DNA of 64,000 nt from the NCBI GenBank assembly GCA_963817525.1, contig CAWFOU010000007.1:192001-256000 (forward strand), written 5' to 3'. The notes beneath the pieces were generated by a model. The model was given only the letters and a program-made list of their open reading frames with translations. It made no database searches and was not told the DNA's origin. This DNA is from an uncultured archaeon. GTDB lineage: Archaea > Thermoproteota > Nitrososphaeria > Nitrososphaerales > Gagatemarchaeaceae. Of this stretch, positions 5,281 through 13,876 are shown in pieces. The position numbers and the translations under genes were made by a program. Each line of letters opens with the position of its first letter. Position 1 is the stretch's first letter.

Positions 5281-6393
5281 CTACCTGCTTTCCAGAGGGA
5301 TGTAATTCAGACCCTTCTTTCCGATGTAAGTGGCGTCGGGCCTGTATATCCTGTTGTCCATCAGCTGCTCGTTGTAGTGAGCGACCCAGCCGACGGTCCT
5401 GCTCGAGGCGAAGATGGGCGTGAAGGTCTCGATGGGGATGCCCAAGGTCATGAAGAGCGGGGCGGCGTAAAAGTCGACGTTCGAGGGGAGCTTCTTGAAC
5501 TCCCAGGCGGCGTTCTCTACGGCCTCGCAGAGCTTGTAGATGTCGAGGCTCTTCTTTTCCTTTTCGAGGAGGTCCCTTAGGAGCTTCTTCGCTAACTGGG
5601 AGCGCGGGTCGACGGTCTTGTAGACCCTGTGGCCGAAGCCCATTATCTTTTCGCCCTTGGCCAAGGTCTCCTGGACGTAGGGTCTCGCGTTGTCAGCGGT
5701 CCCTATCTTGAGGAGCATCTGCATGGCCGCCTCGTTGGCTCCCCCGTGAAGGGGCCCCTTGAGGGCGGCGAGCCCCGCGGTGCACGCGGCGTAGATGTCC
5801 GCCAACGTGGAGGCGACCACCCTCACGGTGAAGGCCGAAGCGTTGAGGTCGTGCTCCAGGTATAGGATTAGCATCCTCTCGAAGCACCAGGCCTCGTAGC
5901 TCGTGGGCTTCTTCCCGGTGAGCATGTAGAGGTAGTTAGCGGTGAGGCTGAGGGACGGGTCGGGCTCGGCTGGCTCCATCCCCTTGTTCAATCGGTAGCA
6001 GTTGGCCACTAGGGCCGGCATCTGCGCGATGATCGAGAGCTTCTGCTCCTCCGACGAGATTCCCCCCTCGGTGGCGCCCAGCCCAGAGACGGCAGTGCGC
6101 AGGACGTCCATCAGGTGCGCCTCGCGGGGTATCTCCTTGACGAGCTGGTAGACGTTGCGGGGGACGAGCGAATACCTCCTCAGCTTCGCCTCGAACTCCG
6201 CCAGCTCTCGCTTCTTCGGGAGCCTCCCGTACAGGATCAGGTAGGTGGACTCCTCGAAGGTCGAGTGCTCGAAGAGGTCATTGATGGCATACCCGCGGTA
6301 GATCAGCGTGCCGTCCGAGTCGCTGATCGCAATGCTGGTGTCCGCTACCGCGACTCCGTCGAGCCCCTTTGGGGCCCGGAGTATCTCTGCCAT
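5281..6393 (-). CDS. prpC: citrate/2-methylcitrate synthase
   Basis: EHDLNAS, LKGPLHGGANE, IMGFGHRVYK..DPR, NVDFY; clustered with prpD and prpB. Confidence 0.85.
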   Translation of the reverse strand: MAEILRAPKGLDGVAVADTSIAISDSDGTLIYRGYAINDLFEHSTFEESTYLILYGRLPKKRELAEFEAKLRRYSLVPRNVYQLVKEIPREAHLMDVLRTAVSGLGATEGGISSEEQKLSIIAQMPALVANCYRLNKGMEPAEPDPSLSLTANYLYMLTGKKPTSYEAWCFERMLILYLEHDLNASAFTVRVVASTLADIYAACTAGLAALKGPLHGGANEAAMQMLLKIGTADNARPYVQETLAKGEKIMGFGHRVYKTVDPRSQLAKKLLRDLLEKEKKSLDIYKLCEAVENAAWEFKKLPSNVDFYAAPLFMTLGIPIETFTPIFASSRTVGWVAHYNEQLMDNRIYRPDATYIGKKGLNYIPLESR

Positions 6394-6546
6394 GCGAGGT
6401 TCAGAAGCAATAAACCCGATATTAATGGTTATAGACGATATATAACCTGCTCTTAGTCGTCATTCAGGCGCTTTAGGGACTCGCAACCCCAATCGTTTCC
6501 CGCTTTTACCCGTCGGTTGCCATCATTCGAGAAGCAATACGCCGTG

Positions 6547-6555
6547 AAAAAAAAA
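6547..6555 (-). terminator. T9 tract, candidate archaeal intrinsic terminator of the minus-strand RHS locus transcript
   Basis: 9 consecutive A on the + strand in GC-rich DNA, downstream of the RHS cassettes. Confidence 0.3.
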
Positions 6556-6661
6556 GCAAAGCCTACGCGCTCCGGAGGCTTAGGGCGCTTTCGCCTAAAA
6601 AGGGGCGGAATCCGACGTGGGAACTTCCGCACGCGAAAGCCCCGAGGGGGACGCACCCGGT

Positions 6662-6683
6662 TGATGGCAAGGAGGGGCAGGGA
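6662..6683 (+). repeat. 22-bp direct repeat, copy 1 (TGATGGCAAGGAGGGGCAGGGA)
   Basis: 20/22 identical to 7114-7135; overlaps the ATG of the HTH-NUMOD3 ORF. Confidence 0.6.
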
Positions 6684-7116
6684 TTCCGGGGCGCCCCTGC
6701 ACCGCCATAGGCCGTGAGAGGAGTGGGGCGAGATTACGTCCAAATACAAGTCGGGCGCACTCCTTAGGGAACTCGCGAAGGAGTATGACCTGTCCCAGAA
6801 ATATATCACCGCCTCCCCGCATGGAGAGCTCCCAGACGAGGACACCCGGGCGATAGGCAGAGCGCACAGCGCGAAAGCGAGTGCAGAACGCCCTCACACA
6901 GTGAGCGACCGGACCAGGGAGAAGATGCGCCAGGCCAAACTCGGGCACGTGGTTAGCGCCGATACCAAGGAGAAGATGCGCCAAGCCGGACTCCGCCACT
7001 GGGCGCTTGCGCGCAGACTCGAGGACAGCAATGACCCCTCTCTGGACCCCTATTTGGACGAGATAATTCGGATTCCATGGGGGTGGGTCGTCGCGGTCTC
7101 GGAGACCGTCCTCTGA
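6664..7116 (+). pseudogene. HTH plus tandem NUMOD3 DNA-binding protein with one in-frame TGA (6715-6717)
   Basis: Track ORFs 6517-6717 and 6901-7116 share a frame separated by one stop. The continuation reads EEWGEITSKYKSGALLRELAKEYDLSQKYI (HTH-like), then HTVSDRTREKMRQAKLG and HVVSADTKEKMRQAGL (NUMOD3-like). Confidence 0.6.
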
Positions 7117-7135
7117 TGGCCAAGAGGGGCAGGGA
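7114..7135 (+). repeat. 22-bp direct repeat, copy 2 (TGATGGCCAAGAGGGGCAGGGA)
   Basis: 20/22 identical to 6662-6683; overlaps the stop of the HTH-NUMOD3 ORF and the end of the RHS remnant. Confidence 0.6.
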
Positions 7136-7271
7136 CGGGTGCAGGGGTGGGGGCGACGGGGTTCGTGGTCGTGGTGGCAGCACAGTCGTAGACTACGGCG
7201 CAGCTCCCCGTCGGGTCGGTACTGCTCTCCTGGTTGTCTAGGGCGTAGATGTACCGGTCGAGGCTCTGGGG
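7125..7271 (-). pseudogene. orphan RHS core remnant (cassette 3), toxin tip missing
   Basis: Encodes PQSLDRYIYALDNQESSTDPTGSCAVVYDCAATTTTN; 7161-7220 is identical to 9060-9119 and 7221-7271 is similar to 9120-9170. Confidence 0.85.
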
Positions 7272-7282
7272 GGATTTTTCAT

Positions 7283-7510
7283 CTATCGCGTGGATAACGC
7301 CGAGATATTGGTCTGTTTTCTGTAATTCCTCCATTTTTTGGAATTGTCCCATGTAGCTATCACAAAAACGGCGAAAGAAAGAAGCTTAAGGGCGCCGGTT
7401 GTCAATGGTGCGAGCTTCAATTCATTTACGAGCACTAGAACAGCAACTTCAAAAGCTACTAATGACAGTCCAACAGCACAGAATTTCCATTCCGTTCTAT
7501 CCAGGATCAA
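7283..7510 (-). CDS. small 2-TM membrane protein, putative immunity protein 2
   Basis: AT-rich; two hydrophobic helices; starts 11 bp after the tandem stops that end orphan tip 2. Confidence 0.6.
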   Translation of the reverse strand: MILDRTEWKFCAVGLSLVAFEVAVLVLVNELKLAPLTTGALKLLSFAVFVIATWDNSKKWRNYRKQTNISALSTR

Positions 7511-7521
7511 ATGCCCCCTTA

Positions 7522-7939
7522 TCAGCCAAACAAGTTGAAGAAAAGTCCTTCAGCCCACGTGTCTAGTCCTTTTTGGGCCATAAAATTTGGATTGTTCCAG
7601 TTATTGTAGGTGTAGATGACTTCGTCGCCCTCAGGACAGCACTGAAGGTCCGGCCACGAAAGCGGCACCACCTGTGCCTAGCCCGGCTACTATAACCAAT
7701 GCGATCGCAGTAATACCAATGATGTTGTCGAGCATTAGTCCATCCCGGTTTGAAGTTAAACCGGAACTATTTGCCGTAGCCGGTACATCCGAACTAGCAG
7801 TTGTTGAAATACTCGTCGTCGTTGAACTCGTCGAAGGTGACGACTGCGTCGAGGTATTGGGCACGAAACCCGACCCCGGAGTCCCATCGGAGACATTGGC
7901 CAGGCAATGTGAGCACGTGGTCTGGGACGGACCGCCCAA
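7522..7939 (-). pseudogene. orphan RHS C-terminal toxin cassette 2 (linker homology plus new hydrophobic tip), frameshifted near 7635
   Basis: 7811-7887 matches 8697-8773 (77 bp, 2 mismatches), followed by a different tip IIGITAIALVIVAGLGTGGAAFVAG; an alternate frame continues GDEVIYTYNNWNNPNFMAQKGLDTWAEGLFFNLFG-TGA-TAA. Confidence 0.75.
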
Positions 7940-7976
7940 TCCCGATGGAGATGATTTCCGTCACTGGGAGGAAGCT

Positions 7977-8378
7977 TCATATCGCATTTTTGCCCTTCGA
8001 AAATGATTTTCTCATCGAAATGGCTTTGCTCATGACCGCCGCGTAGTAACCGAGTTGCGGAACACCGCTGAGTATCAGGACAATAAAGGCGTCAGAGAAT
8101 GCAGATTGATTATGCCCCACAAAGAAGAATACTTCTACGGCCAAGCTGGCATCCATGACTGCTATGGAGGAAAGAACCCACCTTCGCAATCTTGGAAGAA
8201 ACTGGTCAAGAGTTTTGAACGACACAAATTGCTCGTTCATCTTCAATGTGAGAGCCCCCGAAAAGATTAGCAGTGGAACCTCAAACGATTTCGCAAAGAA
8301 AGGGACGACAAAAAACGCAAGAAGAAGAAGCAACACGAATGAGAGATTTGTAAGACGGTGGAATACCCTCAAGGACAC
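7977..8378 (-). CDS. multi-TM membrane protein, putative cognate immunity protein 1
   Basis: Starts 12 bp after the RHS stop, AT-rich, about 4 hydrophobic segments. Confidence 0.65.
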   Translation of the reverse strand: MSLRVFHRLTNLSFVLLLLLAFFVVPFFAKSFEVPLLIFSGALTLKMNEQFVSFKTLDQFLPRLRRWVLSSIAVMDASLAVEVFFFVGHNQSAFSDAFIVLILSGVPQLGYYAAVMSKAISMRKSFSKGKNAI

Positions 8379-8390
8379 TATCGAGAGAAC

Positions 8391-11300
8391 TCACACCCAC
8401 TTGGAAAGTGCCGAAGCAAGCAACCCGAGTCCAACCGCTAGAATTGGACCGCCGACCAATACATCGTCAGCTTCAATGGCGGGAACGAGGACGATTCCAA
8501 CGCCGGTGGAAGACACCGCGATTGACGTTACGACCCCACCAAAGAGGATGCCTGCTCCCGCCAGAGTGAGACCCAATCCGATGAGGAATTGATCGCCGGG
8601 GCTATAACTGTTCCACTCAGAAGTCAACGGGCAGAGGTTCCCGCAATCCAGACCCGTACCGACAACAGAGTTCGAAGATGAAGCGGTCGACGTGACACTC
8701 GTCGTCGTTGAACTCGTCGAAGGGGACGACTGTGTCGAGGTATTGGGCACGAAACCCGACCCCGGAGTCCCATTCGGGGCGTCGTTTACGCAGTGCGAGC
8801 ACTCGGGCGTGGAAGAGGATGTGGAAGAGGATGTACCAGAAATAGGCGGGGTGCTCACGACGGGTGGCGGCGTGGGCGGTGGCGACGCAACGCAGGTGTA
8901 GGCGAAGCACCCGCTGGGCTGCGGTGTGGGCGCGGCGGCAGGAGCAGGTGCAGGGGTAGGCTGGGGATCATACGGCGGCAGGGTTTCCACTACAGAAGTC
9001 TCCACTACAGAAGTTGTAGGCGCAGGGGTGGAGGTGGGGGCGGGGGCGGGGGCGATGGCGTTCGTGGTCGTGGTGGCAGCACAGTCGTAGACTACGGCGC
9101 AGCTCCCCGTCGGGTCGGTGTTGCTCTCCGGGTTGTCGAGGGCGTACGTGTACCGGTCGAGGCTCTGCGGGTCCTCCGCGACGCCTGGGAAGGTGTCCTG
9201 GGTGATGAACCTCTGGATCGAGGGGTCGTAGAACCTGGCGCCGAAGTAGTAGAGGCCTGTCGAGCCGTCTATGGGCTTGCCGCTGAACTGGAAGTAGGCT
9301 TGCCCGTCCTTCTGCCAGTTGGCGCCATAGGGCTTGTAGTCGGTGCTGAAGAGGGTGTTTGACGTGCCCTCCATCACCTGCCTGACGCTCCCGCTGGCGT
9401 CGTCGAGGTAGAAGTAGGAGTAGCCGCACTCGCACTCCTCCTCGAGCAGCATGCCGTTGGCGTAGTAGTACTTGTCGACCGCGCCTGACCCGGTGTTCTT
9501 CTCGTAGATCAGGTTGTTCCCCTCGTAGATGTACACCGTGGTCTGCGTGCCCTGCACGCTCTTTATCCTCTCACCGTCGCTGTCGTACGTGTTCGTCTGG
9601 ACAGTCGAGCCGCCCTTCGACACGCTGGTGAGTTCGTTGTCATAGTTGTACGAGTAGTGCCAGGTCGTCGACCCGTTGACGAGCTCCAGCAGGTTCCCGT
9701 TGTCGTCGTAGGTGAGGCTGGCGCTTCCGACCGAAGTGAGCTTGTTGTTGGCGGCATACCCGTAGGTCGTCTTCACGCTGTTCTGTGTCACGCTCACGAT
9801 GTTTCCGGCCGCATCGTAGTTGTAGTCGATGGTCCCCCAGGAACCTGTCGCGGTGGAGAGGCGGTTCAACCAGTCGTAGGTGTAGCTGTCGCTGTTGATG
9901 CTGAGGACGTTGCCGACGTTGTCATAGGTGTAGGCGAGGTCCATCTCGGTCGTGATTCCCGACATTGCGACGATGCTCGTGGGCAGGTCTGTGCTGTTGT
10001 ACGTGTAGGTCGTTTGAGCGCCGTTCTGGTAGGTTATCGTGTTGATCTTGTCGTCGAGCGTGTACGTGAAGTTCACCGCGTGGTCGTTCATGCTCGTGAC
10101 CCTGTTGAGAGCGTCGTAGGTGAAGGCATCGGTGGTGCCGTCGGGGTACTTTATCGAGAGGATGTTGCTGGCCTTGTCATATGTATAGAGCACCTGGTAT
10201 TTGGCTCCGGCTATCGTGTCCGTCTCGTTGGTCAGGCGGTTCATCGCATCGTATGTGTAGTTGTCGATCGACCCAGAATTGCTCTCGGTGATGATGTTCC
10301 CCGCTTTGTCGTAGGTGTACGAGATGCTGGAGGACCCTGGATAGGTGACCTTTGTGAGCCTGTCCAGTGGGTTGTACGAGTAGCTCGTCGTGTTGTCGTT
10401 GCCGTCAGTCAGGCTTTGCAGGAGGCTGTCTGCGTCATAGGTCTTGGTCTCGTACGTCGCGTCCGGATAGGTGGTCTTTATCAGGCGGTTTAGGTCGTCG
10501 TACTTGTAGCTCGTGACGCCTCCGTCAGGATTTGTGCTGTTCACGAGGTTCCCCGCAGCGTTGTATACGTATGTGGTCGTGTTGTATGCCCCCGTCTTGT
10601 AGTACTCCCTCACGCTGGTCAGGAGGCCGTCCCAGTTGTAGACGTCCTGCGTCTCGTGGCCGTCGGGGTCCGTCACCGTCTTGATATTGTTCACGTCGTT
10701 GTAGGAGATCGTCTCGGTTCCAGAAGGACTGATCTCCTTGATGAGCCGGCCATCCTGATCGTAAGTGTAGTAGGTGGTGTGCCCTGTGGGGGTGGTCTCG
10801 TGCGCGACCTCGTTGTCCCAATTGTAGGTGTAGCTGGTGGTGGAGTACAGCGTATCGCCGTTGAATGTTTGGACAGATGTCAGCCGCCCTAGGCCGTCAT
10901 AGGTCTGGTTCACTATGTTCCCGTCGGGGTCGGTCATCTTGACGACGTTGTGGGTGTTGTCGTAGGCGTAGGTCTCGACCGACGTCGACGCCCCCACGGT
11001 CGGGTACGTGATCGTCAATACCCGATTCAGAGCGTCGTACGTGTACGAGGTGGTGTGCCCGTCCGGGTCGGTCTGGGAGAGCAAGTCCCCGGTCGAAAGC
11101 TGGTAGGTGCTGGAGCTGGTGGTGTTCACGCCGCCCACGTCGATGCTCGTCATCGTCGGGTATGCGTAGGAGTACGTGGCGGAGTAGTCGACGTCCGTCG
11201 TGTTTCCGAGGGGGTCGGTCGCCGAGATCTGGTTGCCGTAATGGTCGTATGCGTAGTTCGAATAGAGCCACGAGGCGCCGTCTAGCTGCTTGGTCTGGAG

Positions 11301-12920
11301 CACGTCCCCCGCCGCGTCATACTTGTAGTAGGTCTCCATGGGGACGGTCCCGTTTGCGTTTTGGAACGAGGCTTCCCCCACCAGCGCGTCGTGGATGTTC
11401 GAAGAGACCACCAGCGGAGTATAGAAGCTGTTGGAGAAGCCAGAGACGCCGAACGTGTCCTGGGAGTCCGTGTTAGCATAGGAGTAGTACGTCTTGTCGC
11501 CGACGTTGTCCTCGCTGTAGATCAAGTTCCCCCAGTTGTCGTATGAGAACTGCGAGCTTGCGAGCAGAGAGAGCGTGGGCGACAGCAGCTTTGTCTCGTT
11601 GATCTGACCGGCGGTGTTGTAGTCGTTCTCGGTGATCCGCACGATGCCGTTCGTAGAGTTAAGGTCGTAGATCCTCTCCAGGTTGTTCGAGTTCTGGAAG
11701 TTGAAGTCTAGGAAGCCCTGCGTAGCCGTGCCGTTCGACATCGTGGAATTCGACCACGTCACGAGCCCGTTCGTGATCGCGTAGGAGGTGCTCAAACTCT
11801 CGGTGAGTGAGGGGAGCGCCGTCGACGAGTAGATGTTCCTTGCGCTCACGGCGTAGAACGTCACCTCGGTTCCGACGGCCTGGCCCGCGTAGGAGTAGGT
11901 GTCTCCGCCCAGGGTGGGATAGATTATTCCCGTAAGGAGCCACCGATTGACTCCGTCGTTGTACTCGTAGCGGGTCACCCTGCTGAGGGGGTCCGTGAGG
12001 CTGACGAGGTTGGTTCCTACGTAACCGAAACTCCATGTGCTTCCGCCCGAGCTGATCGAGCTCAGCTGGCCGTTACCATTGTACGAGAAGGTAACAGTCC
12101 TGCCGATCGTGTCTGTGATCTGGGAGATCTGGCCGGACGAGTACTCGAACGAGATGGTGTTGTTGCCGGTGCTGTCGGTTATCGAGAGCAGTTCCTTGTC
12201 AGAGGCGTAGTGAAAGTCTATCCCGGAGGGAAGATAGAGGTCGTAGGTGCCGCTGCCGCTGTTCTGCACGAGCTCGAAGTCGGTCGCGTTGTTGACTGTC
12301 ATGGTGTCGCCCACCCAATTGTAGGGGTACGCCCCCCCGTCCGCGAGATGGACGTAGTTCGTGCCCAGCCACGGGAAGTTCAGAGCCCAGCCGTTCCCGA
12401 GGTCGGCGAGGGTGAAGTTGTCGTACTCGAAAGGCGAGTCGGAGCGGAAGCCGTAAGGCTGGGTGTAGACCAATCCGATGTCCAAGTTCAGCCCTCCTCT
12501 CCCCGTGAGCGCCAGAGTTCCCTGCTCGATCGAGAGGAGGCCGTTCCCCGGAGACACGACCTCCGAGAGCTGGTTGAAGTATGACTCGTACGGTGAGATC
12601 CCTGCTTGGCTCCAGGAGTTCGGCGAAGCGGGCGCTATCGGGACCACGGGCGGGAACGAAGCGAACACGACGTCGTACGGCGACGAGCTCCCCGTGGTCC
12701 ACGCGACGGAGACGATGGAGTCGCTTATGGGACCGGCCGTGGCCGTGAACGGCTGCAGGTTCGCCTGGTCGCTCGTCAGCGTCTGCTTGGGTCCCCAAGT
12801 CACCCCCAGGTTGGTGCTCACAAAATAGTAGACGGTGGACTCGGACTGGTCGGCCTCGAAGGCCACGAGGGTGTCCTGTCCGTCGGTGGAGATCGTCTTC
12901 GACGAAGACAACTCGAACAT
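8391..12920 (-). CDS. RHS/YD-repeat protein with RHS-associated core and hydrophobic C-terminal tip (polymorphic toxin)
   Basis: Many YxYD/G.L repeats; core motif GLYYFGARFYDPSIQRFITQD...RYTYALDNPESNTDPTG; then a Pro/Ser/Thr linker and a Gly-rich hydrophobic tip. Confidence 0.93.
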   Translation of the reverse strand: MFELSSSKTISTDGQDTLVAFEADQSESTVYYFVSTNLGVTWGPKQTLTSDQANLQPFTATAGPISDSIVSVAWTTGSSSPYDVVFASFPPVVPIAPASPNSWSQAGISPYESYFNQLSEVVSPGNGLLSIEQGTLALTGRGGLNLDIGLVYTQPYGFRSDSPFEYDNFTLADLGNGWALNFPWLGTNYVHLADGGAYPYNWVGDTMTVNNATDFELVQNSGSGTYDLYLPSGIDFHYASDKELLSITDSTGNNTISFEYSSGQISQITDTIGRTVTFSYNGNGQLSSISSGGSTWSFGYVGTNLVSLTDPLSRVTRYEYNDGVNRWLLTGIIYPTLGGDTYSYAGQAVGTEVTFYAVSARNIYSSTALPSLTESLSTSYAITNGLVTWSNSTMSNGTATQGFLDFNFQNSNNLERIYDLNSTNGIVRITENDYNTAGQINETKLLSPTLSLLASSQFSYDNWGNLIYSEDNVGDKTYYSYANTDSQDTFGVSGFSNSFYTPLVVSSNIHDALVGEASFQNANGTVPMETYYKYDAAGDVLQTKQLDGASWLYSNYAYDHYGNQISATDPLGNTTDVDYSATYSYAYPTMTSIDVGGVNTTSSSTYQLSTGDLLSQTDPDGHTTSYTYDALNRVLTITYPTVGASTSVETYAYDNTHNVVKMTDPDGNIVNQTYDGLGRLTSVQTFNGDTLYSTTSYTYNWDNEVAHETTPTGHTTYYTYDQDGRLIKEISPSGTETISYNDVNNIKTVTDPDGHETQDVYNWDGLLTSVREYYKTGAYNTTTYVYNAAGNLVNSTNPDGGVTSYKYDDLNRLIKTTYPDATYETKTYDADSLLQSLTDGNDNTTSYSYNPLDRLTKVTYPGSSSISYTYDKAGNIITESNSGSIDNYTYDAMNRLTNETDTIAGAKYQVLYTYDKASNILSIKYPDGTTDAFTYDALNRVTSMNDHAVNFTYTLDDKINTITYQNGAQTTYTYNSTDLPTSIVAMSGITTEMDLAYTYDNVGNVLSINSDSYTYDWLNRLSTATGSWGTIDYNYDAAGNIVSVTQNSVKTTYGYAANNKLTSVGSASLTYDDNGNLLELVNGSTTWHYSYNYDNELTSVSKGGSTVQTNTYDSDGERIKSVQGTQTTVYIYEGNNLIYEKNTGSGAVDKYYYANGMLLEEECECGYSYFYLDDASGSVRQVMEGTSNTLFSTDYKPYGANWQKDGQAYFQFSGKPIDGSTGLYYFGARFYDPSIQRFITQDTFPGVAEDPQSLDRYTYALDNPESNTDPTGSCAVVYDCAATTTTNAIAPAPAPTSTPAPTTSVVETSVVETLPPYDPQPTPAPAPAAAPTPQPSGCFAYTCVASPPPTPPPVVSTPPISGTSSSTSSSTPECSHCVNDAPNGTPGSGFVPNTSTQSSPSTSSTTTSVTSTASSSNSVVGTGLDCGNLCPLTSEWNSYSPGDQFLIGLGLTLAGAGILFGGVVTSIAVSSTGVGIVLVPAIEADDVLVGGPILAVGLGLLASALSKWV

Positions 12921-12964
12921 GAAGGACGAGCGCCTCGTGAAGACGCTGCACCCAAGGCCCTAAG

Positions 12965-13876
12965 CTAGCCCAGGAGACGAGACCCCTTCCGCGCGGTCTC
13001 CTTGTCAGCCCTCTCTAGGGAGCGGTAGTCCGTGAGCTCGTAGAACTCATCCCTGGTCATCATCTTCTCGAGGAGGGCCTTCTGCGTCCCCGACCTGGAG
13101 AGCTGCCGGAGGGCGTCACGCATCGCCTTCATCGCTACCCGGAAGGTCGTCACGGGGAAGATGACGAGCTTGTAGCCCTCGCCCAGCCCCGCAAAGTCAG
13201 ACAGCGAGAGGTAGGGAGTCTTGCCGAACTCCGTCATGTTGGCGAGCAGCGGCCCCCTCACCTTCTTCGCGAACTCGGCGAACTCCTCCCTGGACTTTAG
13301 GGCCTCTGGGAATATCACGTCCGCCCCCGCTCTCTGGTAGAGCCTCGCCCTCTCCACCGCCCCGTCGAGCCCCTCGGTCTCCGCGGCGTCGGTCCTCGCT
13401 ATCACGACCAGCTCGGTCTTGGCGGCTGCCTTGGCCGCGATGACCTTCTTCGCCATCTCGGCTGGCTCGACCACCCCCTTCCCGTCGAGGTGCCCGCACC
13501 TCTTGGGCATGACCTGGTCCTCGATCTGTATCGCGGCCGCCCCGGCCCGCTCCATCTCCCGGACGGTCCGGGCGACGTTGACCGCTTCCCCAAACCCCGT
13601 GTCCACGTCGACGATGAGCGGCAGCGAGGGCACGACGGCAGTTATGCGCGCGGCCGCCTCGGCGACCTCGGAGAGGGTGGTTACCCCGAGGTCGGGCAGA
13701 CCCATGGAGTTCGAGAGGGCGGCCCCGGAGAGGTAGAGGCACTGGAATCCTGCTTCCTCGGCCAGCAGCGCGACGGCCGGGTTGAAAACGCCGGGTGTTG
13801 CAATCGTATTCTTCCCCGAGAGGAGCTTCCTAAGCCTCGCGCCGGGGTCGGCAGCTGGCCTCTTCGCGGGGGGCAT
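12965..13876 (-). CDS. prpB: 2-methylisocitrate lyase
   Basis: YLSGAA, GLPDLG, VDVDTGFG, IEDQVMPKRCGHL, IARTDA, LANMTEFGKTP. Confidence 0.93.
   Translation of the reverse strand: MPPAKRPAADPGARLRKLLSGKNTIATPGVFNPAVALLAEEAGFQCLYLSGAALSNSMGLPDLGVTTLSEVAEAAARITAVVPSLPLIVDVDTGFGEAVNVARTVREMERAGAAAIQIEDQVMPKRCGHLDGKGVVEPAEMAKKVIAAKAAAKTELVVIARTDAAETEGLDGAVERARLYQRAGADVIFPEALKSREEFAEFAKKVRGPLLANMTEFGKTPYLSLSDFAGLGEGYKLVIFPVTTFRVAMKAMRDALRQLSRSGTQKALLEKMMTRDEFYELTDYRSLERADKETARKGSRLLG

Follow-up and report, generated by a model that had tools for sequence, protein, structure and literature searches.

The 64,000-nucleotide stretch of DNA analyzed here, which we call the window, covers positions 192,001 to 256,000 of contig CAWFOU010000007.1 in the genome of an uncultured archaeon (GenBank assembly GCA_963817525.1). 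It carries on its minus strand a long RHS/YD-repeat gene followed by displaced gene ends and small open reading frames (ORFs), an arrangement that an earlier note, made from the sequence alone, had described as an RHS polymorphic-toxin locus working as a competition system in an archaeon. We propose that the locus derives from an Rhs/YD polymorphic-toxin locus, of which it would be a relic, truncated and inserted at its present place; the family has a patchy distribution in one soil genus labelled Thaumarchaeota. We put the probability of this reading at about 0.7. The type of locus and its archaeal host are well supported by the data presented below. On the other hand, the idea of an intact competition system does not hold, as the gene is deprived of its signal peptide and of at least 436 N-terminal residues, its start codon is provided by the antisense of what remains of another gene and the second of its tips seems to be frameshifted.

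The RHS gene was recognized by ORF calling, Pfam, NCBIfam and alignment to relatives as a 5'-truncated ORF of 1509 amino acids (aa) devoid of a signal peptide (8391..12920, minus strand). Pfam RHS_repeat (PF05593) matches it in 11 stretches with an E-value of 2.6e-74 and, in the NCBIfam scan, TIGR01643 (YD_repeat) matches it in 8. The Rhs-associated core domain ending in DPTG was located by TIGR03696 (Rhs_assc_core) at aa 1195-1272 (9105..9338, minus strand), with 62.4 bits for a cut-off of 32.5 and with profile positions 1-75 of 76 aligned; the NCBIfam equivalog 'RHS element core protein' reached 127.7 bits, far under its cut-off of 2000. TIGR03696 and RHS_repeat were the two models that the earlier note had put forward as a check, and both of them match the ORF. 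Its description of a 1509-aa gene ending in the DPTG core motif is right as to the length and the YD/RHS identity and wrong as to the end, since 237 residues come after DPTG. Genome-wide, the repeat models gave 14 matches, every one inside this ORF, and tblastn together with profile searches designated it as the sole RHS of the 2.82-Mb, 95%-complete genome (15 contigs, 8.75% estimated contamination, GC content 0.61). The small-subunit (SSU) rRNA of this genome is best fitted by the archaeal model, and the nearest RHS locus, that of relative G006, stands on a contig titled 'MAG: Thaumarchaeota archaeon'; the guess of a Nitrososphaerota/TACK host was thus reasonable. The sequencing runs containing the stretch are soil metagenomes. 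A search of the genome for amoA gave no match, and its control likewise matched nowhere.

The 5' end of the gene points to a relic. Homology to relatives begins at aa 7-9 of the ORF, and the frames of the relatives reach further upstream, by 436 aa in the first RHS gene of G006 (RHS1), by about 600 aa in G002:C12 and by 1557 aa in G002:C47, where they start with typical signal peptides. The window ORF displays neither a signal peptide nor a hydrophobic N-terminus (maximum 12-aa hydropathy 0.875). Nor is the missing N-terminal part found elsewhere in the genome, as assessed by tblastn with nine N-terminal queries from relatives. The same region contains the 3' end of a small gene on the plus strand, a remnant of about 23 last codons (12892..12963) that is 79% identical over 62 nucleotides (nt) (12892-12953) to locus L022 of relative G017, in which an intact 145-aa gene of unknown family (L022 337-771, minus strand) lies antisense between prpB and prpC. 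The RHS ATG at 12920 and the first 8 codons or so are the antisense of this remnant. RHS homology and small-gene homology meet within about 5 nt (12892-12896), which indicates an illegitimate joining. Because the signal peptide and the N-terminal domains are gone, the RHS protein of the window would probably not be deployable, as judged from its sequence. The absence of delivery genes in the window, already pointed out in the earlier note, is explained by the use of N-terminal Sec-type signal peptides in the relatives.

The conserved prpB-prpC gene pair, tight elsewhere, is split by 6.5 kb in the window (5281-13876). On one flank, prpB (methylisocitrate lyase; 12965..13876, minus strand) scores 396 bits with TIGR02317 for a cut-off of 354, and its last codons are unlike those of the relatives at the insertion point. 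On the other flank, a prpC-like 2-methylcitrate/citrate synthase (5281..6393, minus strand) scores 420.6 bits with TIGR01800, the cut-off being 421.3. Alignment with 7 relatives reveals that the ancestral prpB-prpC spacer has been kept beside prpC (6394..6432, minus strand), and homology to G017 resumes at 6432. The two genes are separated by 37-59 nt in 15 of the 16 relatives in which a single contig carries both; the distance rises to 693 nt in G017 and to 6571 nt in the window, and in G008 they are found on different contigs. Since prpB and prpC nearly adjoin in the relatives and the spacer persists, we read what separates them here as an inserted block of about 6.46 kb, placed by sequence comparison at about 6433-12893. 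Seven other relatives aligned across the junction have no insert at the site. Taken together with the 145-aa gene of G017 and the block of the window, this implies that the site was hit at least twice.

Behind DPTG, the RHS protein ends in a C-terminal region of 237 aa that we call tip 1 (8391..9104, minus strand). It consists of a linker rich in Pro, Thr and Ser (P/T/S), with four Cys pairs, and of a hydrophobic end. P/T/S make up 100 of the 237 residues (42%), and the 8 Cys stand in four close pairs, as compared to two Cys in the remaining 1272 residues of the protein. The last 65 residues or so (aa 1444-1509) form its only hydrophobic segment. The RHS stop codon is followed after 12 nt by a 133-aa ORF (7977..8378, minus strand; GC 0.45) with three predicted transmembrane (TM) segments, a candidate immunity gene by ORF call and position, and this corresponds well to the AT-rich multi-TM ORF at 12 bp of the earlier note. 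The GC content over 7300-8400 is 0.43-0.50, for 0.61 in the whole genome. For the last 130 aa of tip 1, a search of 5.8 billion clustered proteins whose total length is similar found no relative, and 1.84 billion representatives of any length gave three weak multi-stretch matches only. The 133-aa ORF matched solely its own public gene call, a shorter version of 89 aa, and scans of metagenome contigs with either sequence yielded no relative. In the ESM Atlas, all the scores for the two sequences were below 0.9, a range that provides leads only; this includes a language-model score of 0.76 with a colicin cluster, which is sub-threshold and no evidence of kinship.

Two stretches of the C-terminal half of the gene are repeated further downstream. 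The main copy of the first, called anchor 1 (9024..9171, minus strand), comprises the core end and the start of the linker and is identical to 7125-7272 at 131 of 148 positions; inside it, 7161-7220 and 9060-9119 agree at 60 out of 60. The main copy of the second, anchor 2 (8682..8813, minus strand), comprises a linker motif, CSHC...GTPGSG..PNTS, and is identical to 7796-7927 at 106 of 132 positions, with 75 out of 77 for 7811-7887 against 8697-8773. Exact repeats of such length within 10 kb are far beyond chance. The 77-bp near-identical linker copy and the 60-bp identical core copy that had been reported for this DNA are therefore real, and so is the sharing of anchor sequences between the main gene and the tip fragments downstream.

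The copy of anchor 2 belongs to a displaced fragment of 102 aa, tip 2 (7631..7939, minus strand), which contains in addition one hydrophobic helix, has no core and runs into an in-frame stop at 7631. An ORF in a shifted frame (7522..7671, minus strand) appears to continue it. The tail of this second ORF aligns with the end of the tip of an inverted orphan module in G006, with a score reached by 7 of 5000 shuffles, and the helix of tip 2 aligns with the same orphan tip (28 of 5000 shuffles), colinearly with the tail match; the same test against two other tips, used as controls, was not significant. Because the helix and the out-of-frame tail match the G006 orphan tip colinearly, tip 2 and this orphan tip probably belong to one family of tips, in which tip 2 would be a frameshifted member, to judge from these alignments. 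Next comes a candidate immunity gene of 75 aa with two predicted TM segments (7283..7510, minus strand; GC 0.43), designated by ORF call and position, for which no homologue was found in the loci and the genome searched. This small TM ORF had been said to start 11 bp after the tip, which is correct relative to the out-of-frame ORF, whereas the distance from the in-frame stop of tip 2 is 120 nt.

The copy of anchor 1 forms fragment 3, a displaced core-end stub of 100 aa (7050..7352, minus strand) whose solid homology is limited to the 148 nt of 7125-7272 and which has neither a tip nor an immunity gene. A sharp GC break occurs at 7272/7273. We considered an extension of the core homology upstream to 7421, suggested by tblastn, and rejected it; the match is weak and contains stops, and the GC break marks the edge. 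Fragment 3 is indeed present as announced in the earlier note, and it reaches 7050, past the position 7114 given there as the start of the locus. Compared with an rhs orphan, tip 2 has homology to the linker only, a probable frameshift and a 2-TM ORF downstream. Neither tip 2 nor fragment 3 is a complete orphan module.

The family is also found in relatives. A search with the RHS protein gives a match in 10 of 22 genomes of the same genus at E<=1e-3, in 6 of the 22 at E<=1e-30, and in none of 18 genomes that represent other genera of the order. In the rest of the phylum the family is rare, the Rhs core model having matched 3 of 400 other genomes that were sampled. Ten core ends from 7 relatives display a conserved ...DP[TS]G end followed by differing C-termini. 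G006 RHS1, for example, is 65% identical over aa 8-1327 and has in common with the window protein, past the core, only a 20-residue linker motif (CSHC...GTPGSG..PNTS). To take another example, the tips of G002:C12 and G007 share their first 56 residues (61%) and then diverge. The DNA downstream was examined for five tips of relatives, and in each case a low-GC ORF (0.46-0.53) follows. It is of membrane type behind two purely hydrophobic tips (75 aa with 2 TM segments for G006 RHS1, 281 aa and polytopic for G003:C57) and soluble behind three tips combining TM and globular parts (G006 RHS2, G002:C12 and G007). In three relatives, the hydrophobic segment of the tip is followed by a non-hydrophobic domain of 100-150 aa. 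The inverted orphan of G006 combines 114 aa of core with a tip and is followed by a soluble 173-aa ORF (GC 0.50). The comparison of relatives proposed earlier, in search of differing tip/immunity pairs behind a conserved core, thus gave a positive answer in these ten core ends and in the differing ORFs downstream. The G006 locus (L002 10000-19464) is richer than that of the window, as it contains RHS1, two small membrane ORFs, the inverted orphan and a second RHS gene; the latter is preceded by a signal-peptide ORF and comes with a run of N, and the N-terminal region of RHS1 seems split over three frames.

Broken RHS copies also exist among the relatives, being spread over many frames in G015, split in G007, interrupted by stops in G022 and reduced to an orphan end in G001. 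Beside the fragmented pseudogene of G015 (contig G015:C8; L018, about 5680-7050) lies an A/T run that resembles a homopolymer and exceeds 1 kb, which is probably an assembly or sequencing artefact. In the protein of G002:C47 (L014; 3393 aa), scans of Pfam, NCBIfam and PHROGs place a domain of the Laminin_G_3 type (a concanavalin-like lectin) ahead of the shell; it is possible that this domain represents the target-binding module of the intact family. The N-termini of the other relatives and the 145-aa gene of G017 gave no match in these three libraries. A sequence search of the PDB with three relatives' tips returned nothing below E 0.1, and AlphaFold2, run without an alignment on the last 142 aa of the G002:C12 tip, gave an unusable model (mean predicted local distance difference test, pLDDT, of 47).

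From the relatives and from bacterial Rhs biology, a mechanism can be proposed for the intact form. A Sec signal peptide would export a protein of 1.8-3.4 kaa (thousand aa), whose YD shell would enclose the region behind the core, and the Rhs core would cut at ...DPTG. The target of the variable tip would be an adjacent cell, and the producer would be protected by the small ORF that follows. New tip-plus-immunity cassettes would enter by recombination, with the core or the linker anchor as the site of crossover; at its other end the incoming DNA would be joined illegitimately, and the older tip would be displaced downstream, in what is called C-terminal displacement. The repeat anchors, the GC break at 7272/7273 and the frameshift of tip 2 fit this pattern. 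The array would accordingly read, from newest to oldest, as tip 1 with the 133-aa ORF, frameshifted tip 2 with the 75-aa ORF, and the core-end stub. The block of about 6.46 kb, made up of this array, the 5'-truncated rhs gene and a homing-endonuclease-like remnant, would have been inserted illegitimately between prpB and prpC, where it would have replaced most of the small gene. As for function, the hydrophobic Gly/Ala-rich tips may damage membranes, with the membrane ORFs as their immunity proteins, and these ORFs may still protect against toxins of kin if they are transcribed by read-through of the prp operon.

One would wonder whether the array could simply result from a faulty assembly, the repeats or the placement in prp arising from mis-joined metagenome contigs. 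We searched four soil-metagenome runs of one study, which contain 54-61% of the sampled words and were used as assembled contigs of depth 3-6; it is possible that the sample of origin is among them, in which case they test the assembly and not the biology. The junction of prpB with RHS is bridged by short-read contigs assembled separately from three runs (X1 12696-13600, X4 12593-13457 and X2 12826-13112) and the prpC junction by those of two (X3 6066-6447 and X4 6297-6541), and a contig of X1 spans 7191-7697. Moreover, the two copies of the repeats differ in their flanks. An artefact is therefore highly improbable, even considering that the genome assembly comprises 15 contigs, with contamination estimated at 8.75%, and that 7888-8148 is without contig cover in all four runs, as is 7366-8670 in X2. 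A contig of X2 also provides a hint of rearrangement. It covers 6551-7272 and continues with 39 letters matching the main core at 9172-9201 (29/30). At 7221, 7222, 7231 and 7239 it has the letters of the main copy, and within the 60-nt repeat it shows four letters that are private to it. The contig suggests a strain whose core is joined directly to fragment 3. No RNA run is listed among the sequencing runs containing the stretch.

Several points weigh against a relic of a toxin locus. Neither stops nor frameshifts interrupt the 4.5-kb ORF, which fits either a recent truncation or continued use, and the array may be older or younger than the move into the prp locus. The X2 joint depends on a single contig of low depth, in which the assembly could have passed from one repeat copy to the other. 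The 75-aa ORF is unlike the ORF behind the G006 tip that weakly resembles tip 2, and the length of the 133-aa ORF is unexceptional, since 143 of 1000 shuffles of the 1118-nt region reach it (shuffle tests on the exact ORF intervals being circular). Finally, the tips and small ORFs have no real homologue and match no toxin or immunity family of Pfam, NCBIfam or PHROGs, the window tips having been scanned in all three libraries and nine tips, eight of them from relatives, in Pfam; their toxicity, membrane action and immunity are proposed on the basis of the layout and of the membrane ORFs that accompany hydrophobic tips. Considering the intact frame, the complete core, the membrane ORF 12 nt downstream, an orientation shared with prpB and prpC that makes transcription plausible, and the possible core-to-fragment-3 recombinant of another strain, one could assume that the system is still active. 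The 1509-aa protein, translated from the ATG at 12920 or expressed through read-through of the operon, would reach the surface by a route independent of a signal peptide and deliver tip 1, and the orphans would serve as a reservoir for swapping. We find this unlikely. All the long relatives start with signal peptides and at least 436 extra residues, the start codon was created by the antisense of another gene's remnant, tip 2 appears frameshifted, and the genome offers neither a second RHS nor an N-terminal part for recombination. Another hypothesis is that no toxin is involved. The YD shell would be a surface structure, the stalk and helices would anchor it in the membrane by its C-terminus, in the manner of archaeal surface glycoproteins, and the variable tips would serve recognition or adhesion; the P/T/S-rich, Cys-paired C-terminal region ending in the only hydrophobic segment of the protein and the absence of a recognizable toxin domain in 9 tips are in line with it. 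However, the non-hydrophobic domains that end three relatives' tips are not the layout of an anchor, and the tightly linked, equally variable small ORFs with displaced copies downstream resemble toxin-immunity loci. The NCBIfam library includes archaeal sorting-signal models, and the whole-protein scan (E<=0.01) retrieved RHS-related models only and no C-terminal sorting signal of the PGF-CTERM/PEF-CTERM type. Cleavage at the Rhs core, which is established Rhs biology, would furthermore detach the shell from such an anchor. We consider an anchor quite improbable and retain the truncated, inserted toxin relic as the best explanation.

A parallel can be drawn with the rhs loci of bacteria. C-terminal displacement is the model of Jackson et al. 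2009 (PMC2935791), on Enterobacteriaceae Rhs loci with displaced tips, and of Koskiniemi et al. 2014 (PMC3967940), on the main/orphan rhs locus of Salmonella Typhimurium. The locus of the window resembles these by its conserved YD shell and core, by variable tips decoupled from the core, by fragments stacked downstream that recall, in incomplete form, orphan tips keeping a piece of the core with a linked small gene and lacking start and export signals, and by the possibility of recombination between main gene and orphan. It differs from them by its archaeal host, by relatives that export through a signal peptide and not a type VI secretion system (T6SS), by a second anchor inside the linker, by P/T/S-rich, Cys-paired and hydrophobic-ended tips without homologues, and by a "main" gene that is truncated and has no full-length partner in the genome. 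In archaea, polymorphic toxin systems are rare, and Methanosarcina acetivorans has classical RHS toxins with toxin/immunity cassettes, according to Zhang et al. 2012 (PMC3482391). The Rhs core and RHS repeat models match in this species, taken as a control genome. It belongs to a different phylum, and the tips described here, in a comparison that did not set the loci directly side by side, match no catalogued toxin family. Loci of this kind, described in 2012, are thus not new to archaea. A 2021 article (PMC8416519) mentions that archaeal contact-dependent toxin systems have been widely predicted by Makarova et al. 2019 without experimental characterisation. We found no relevant paper on Rhs in Thaumarchaeota, the work of Makarova et al. 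not being included in this survey.

The intact relatives also resemble known exported toxins that dispense with an injection apparatus. In their layout they share with WapA the signal peptide, the YD repeats, a variable and putatively toxic C-terminus and an adjacent candidate immunity gene. WapA of Bacillus subtilis is a Sec-exported, wall-associated Rhs-type toxin of Gram-positive bacteria, whose known tips are nucleases acting in the cytoplasm, whereas several tips of the present family are only hydrophobic helices with membrane-protein partners. The latter pairing would follow the logic of pore-forming toxins of the colicin type and of the ionophore toxins of contact-dependent inhibition (CDI), alongside which integral-membrane immunity proteins are encoded; the likeness is one of pairing, without demonstrated sequence or fold similarity. 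A more ambitious and rather doubtful hypothesis would be that the genus possesses its own Sec-exported RHS weapon, with bare Gly/Ala-rich membrane-inserting helices carried on Cys-paired P/T/S-rich stalks and countered by small polytopic membrane proteins. Swapping would operate on two tiers, the core-end anchor exchanging the whole C-terminus and the stalk anchor the last 100 residues or so, and the copy in the prp operon, transcribed through read-through, would be no junk and would be kept as a reservoir of immunity genes and tips.

Altogether, this is a known kind of locus in a little-described lineage, with lineage-specific tips and a second anchor in the linker. It indicates that rhs arrays are assembled and eroded in the bacterial manner in soil archaea too, within a genus where the family is common, and it documents a 6.5-kb insertion splitting a conserved gene pair. 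As no relatives of them exist among 1.8 billion representative proteins, the tips and membrane ORFs would be new types of toxin and immunity protein if their activity were confirmed. For such experiments the copy of the window would be the wrong one, and L002, L013 and L014, which are intact loci of relatives with signal peptides, are better targets.

The distal 0.7 kb of the inserted block contains, on the plus strand, what looks like the DNA-binding tail of a homing endonuclease (6517..7116), with a helix-turn-helix-like stretch, two NUMOD3-like repeats and an in-frame TGA at 6715-6717. It overlaps the last codons of fragment 3 in antisense. Its repeats gave two matches (E 5.8e-6 and 8e-5; 54-56% identity over 30% of the query), both to GIY-YIG proteins, one of which has NUMOD3. 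The remnant itself has no GIY-YIG catalytic domain and no Pfam match, and none of the 22 genus relatives has a counterpart of it. As a candidate for a target-site duplication, the two ends of the island share only a 6-nt string, which is not convincing. At the island edge, a contig of X1 diverges from the window at 6442 and continues with 106 further letters unlike it, possibly representing a co-occurring strain with other content at this site.

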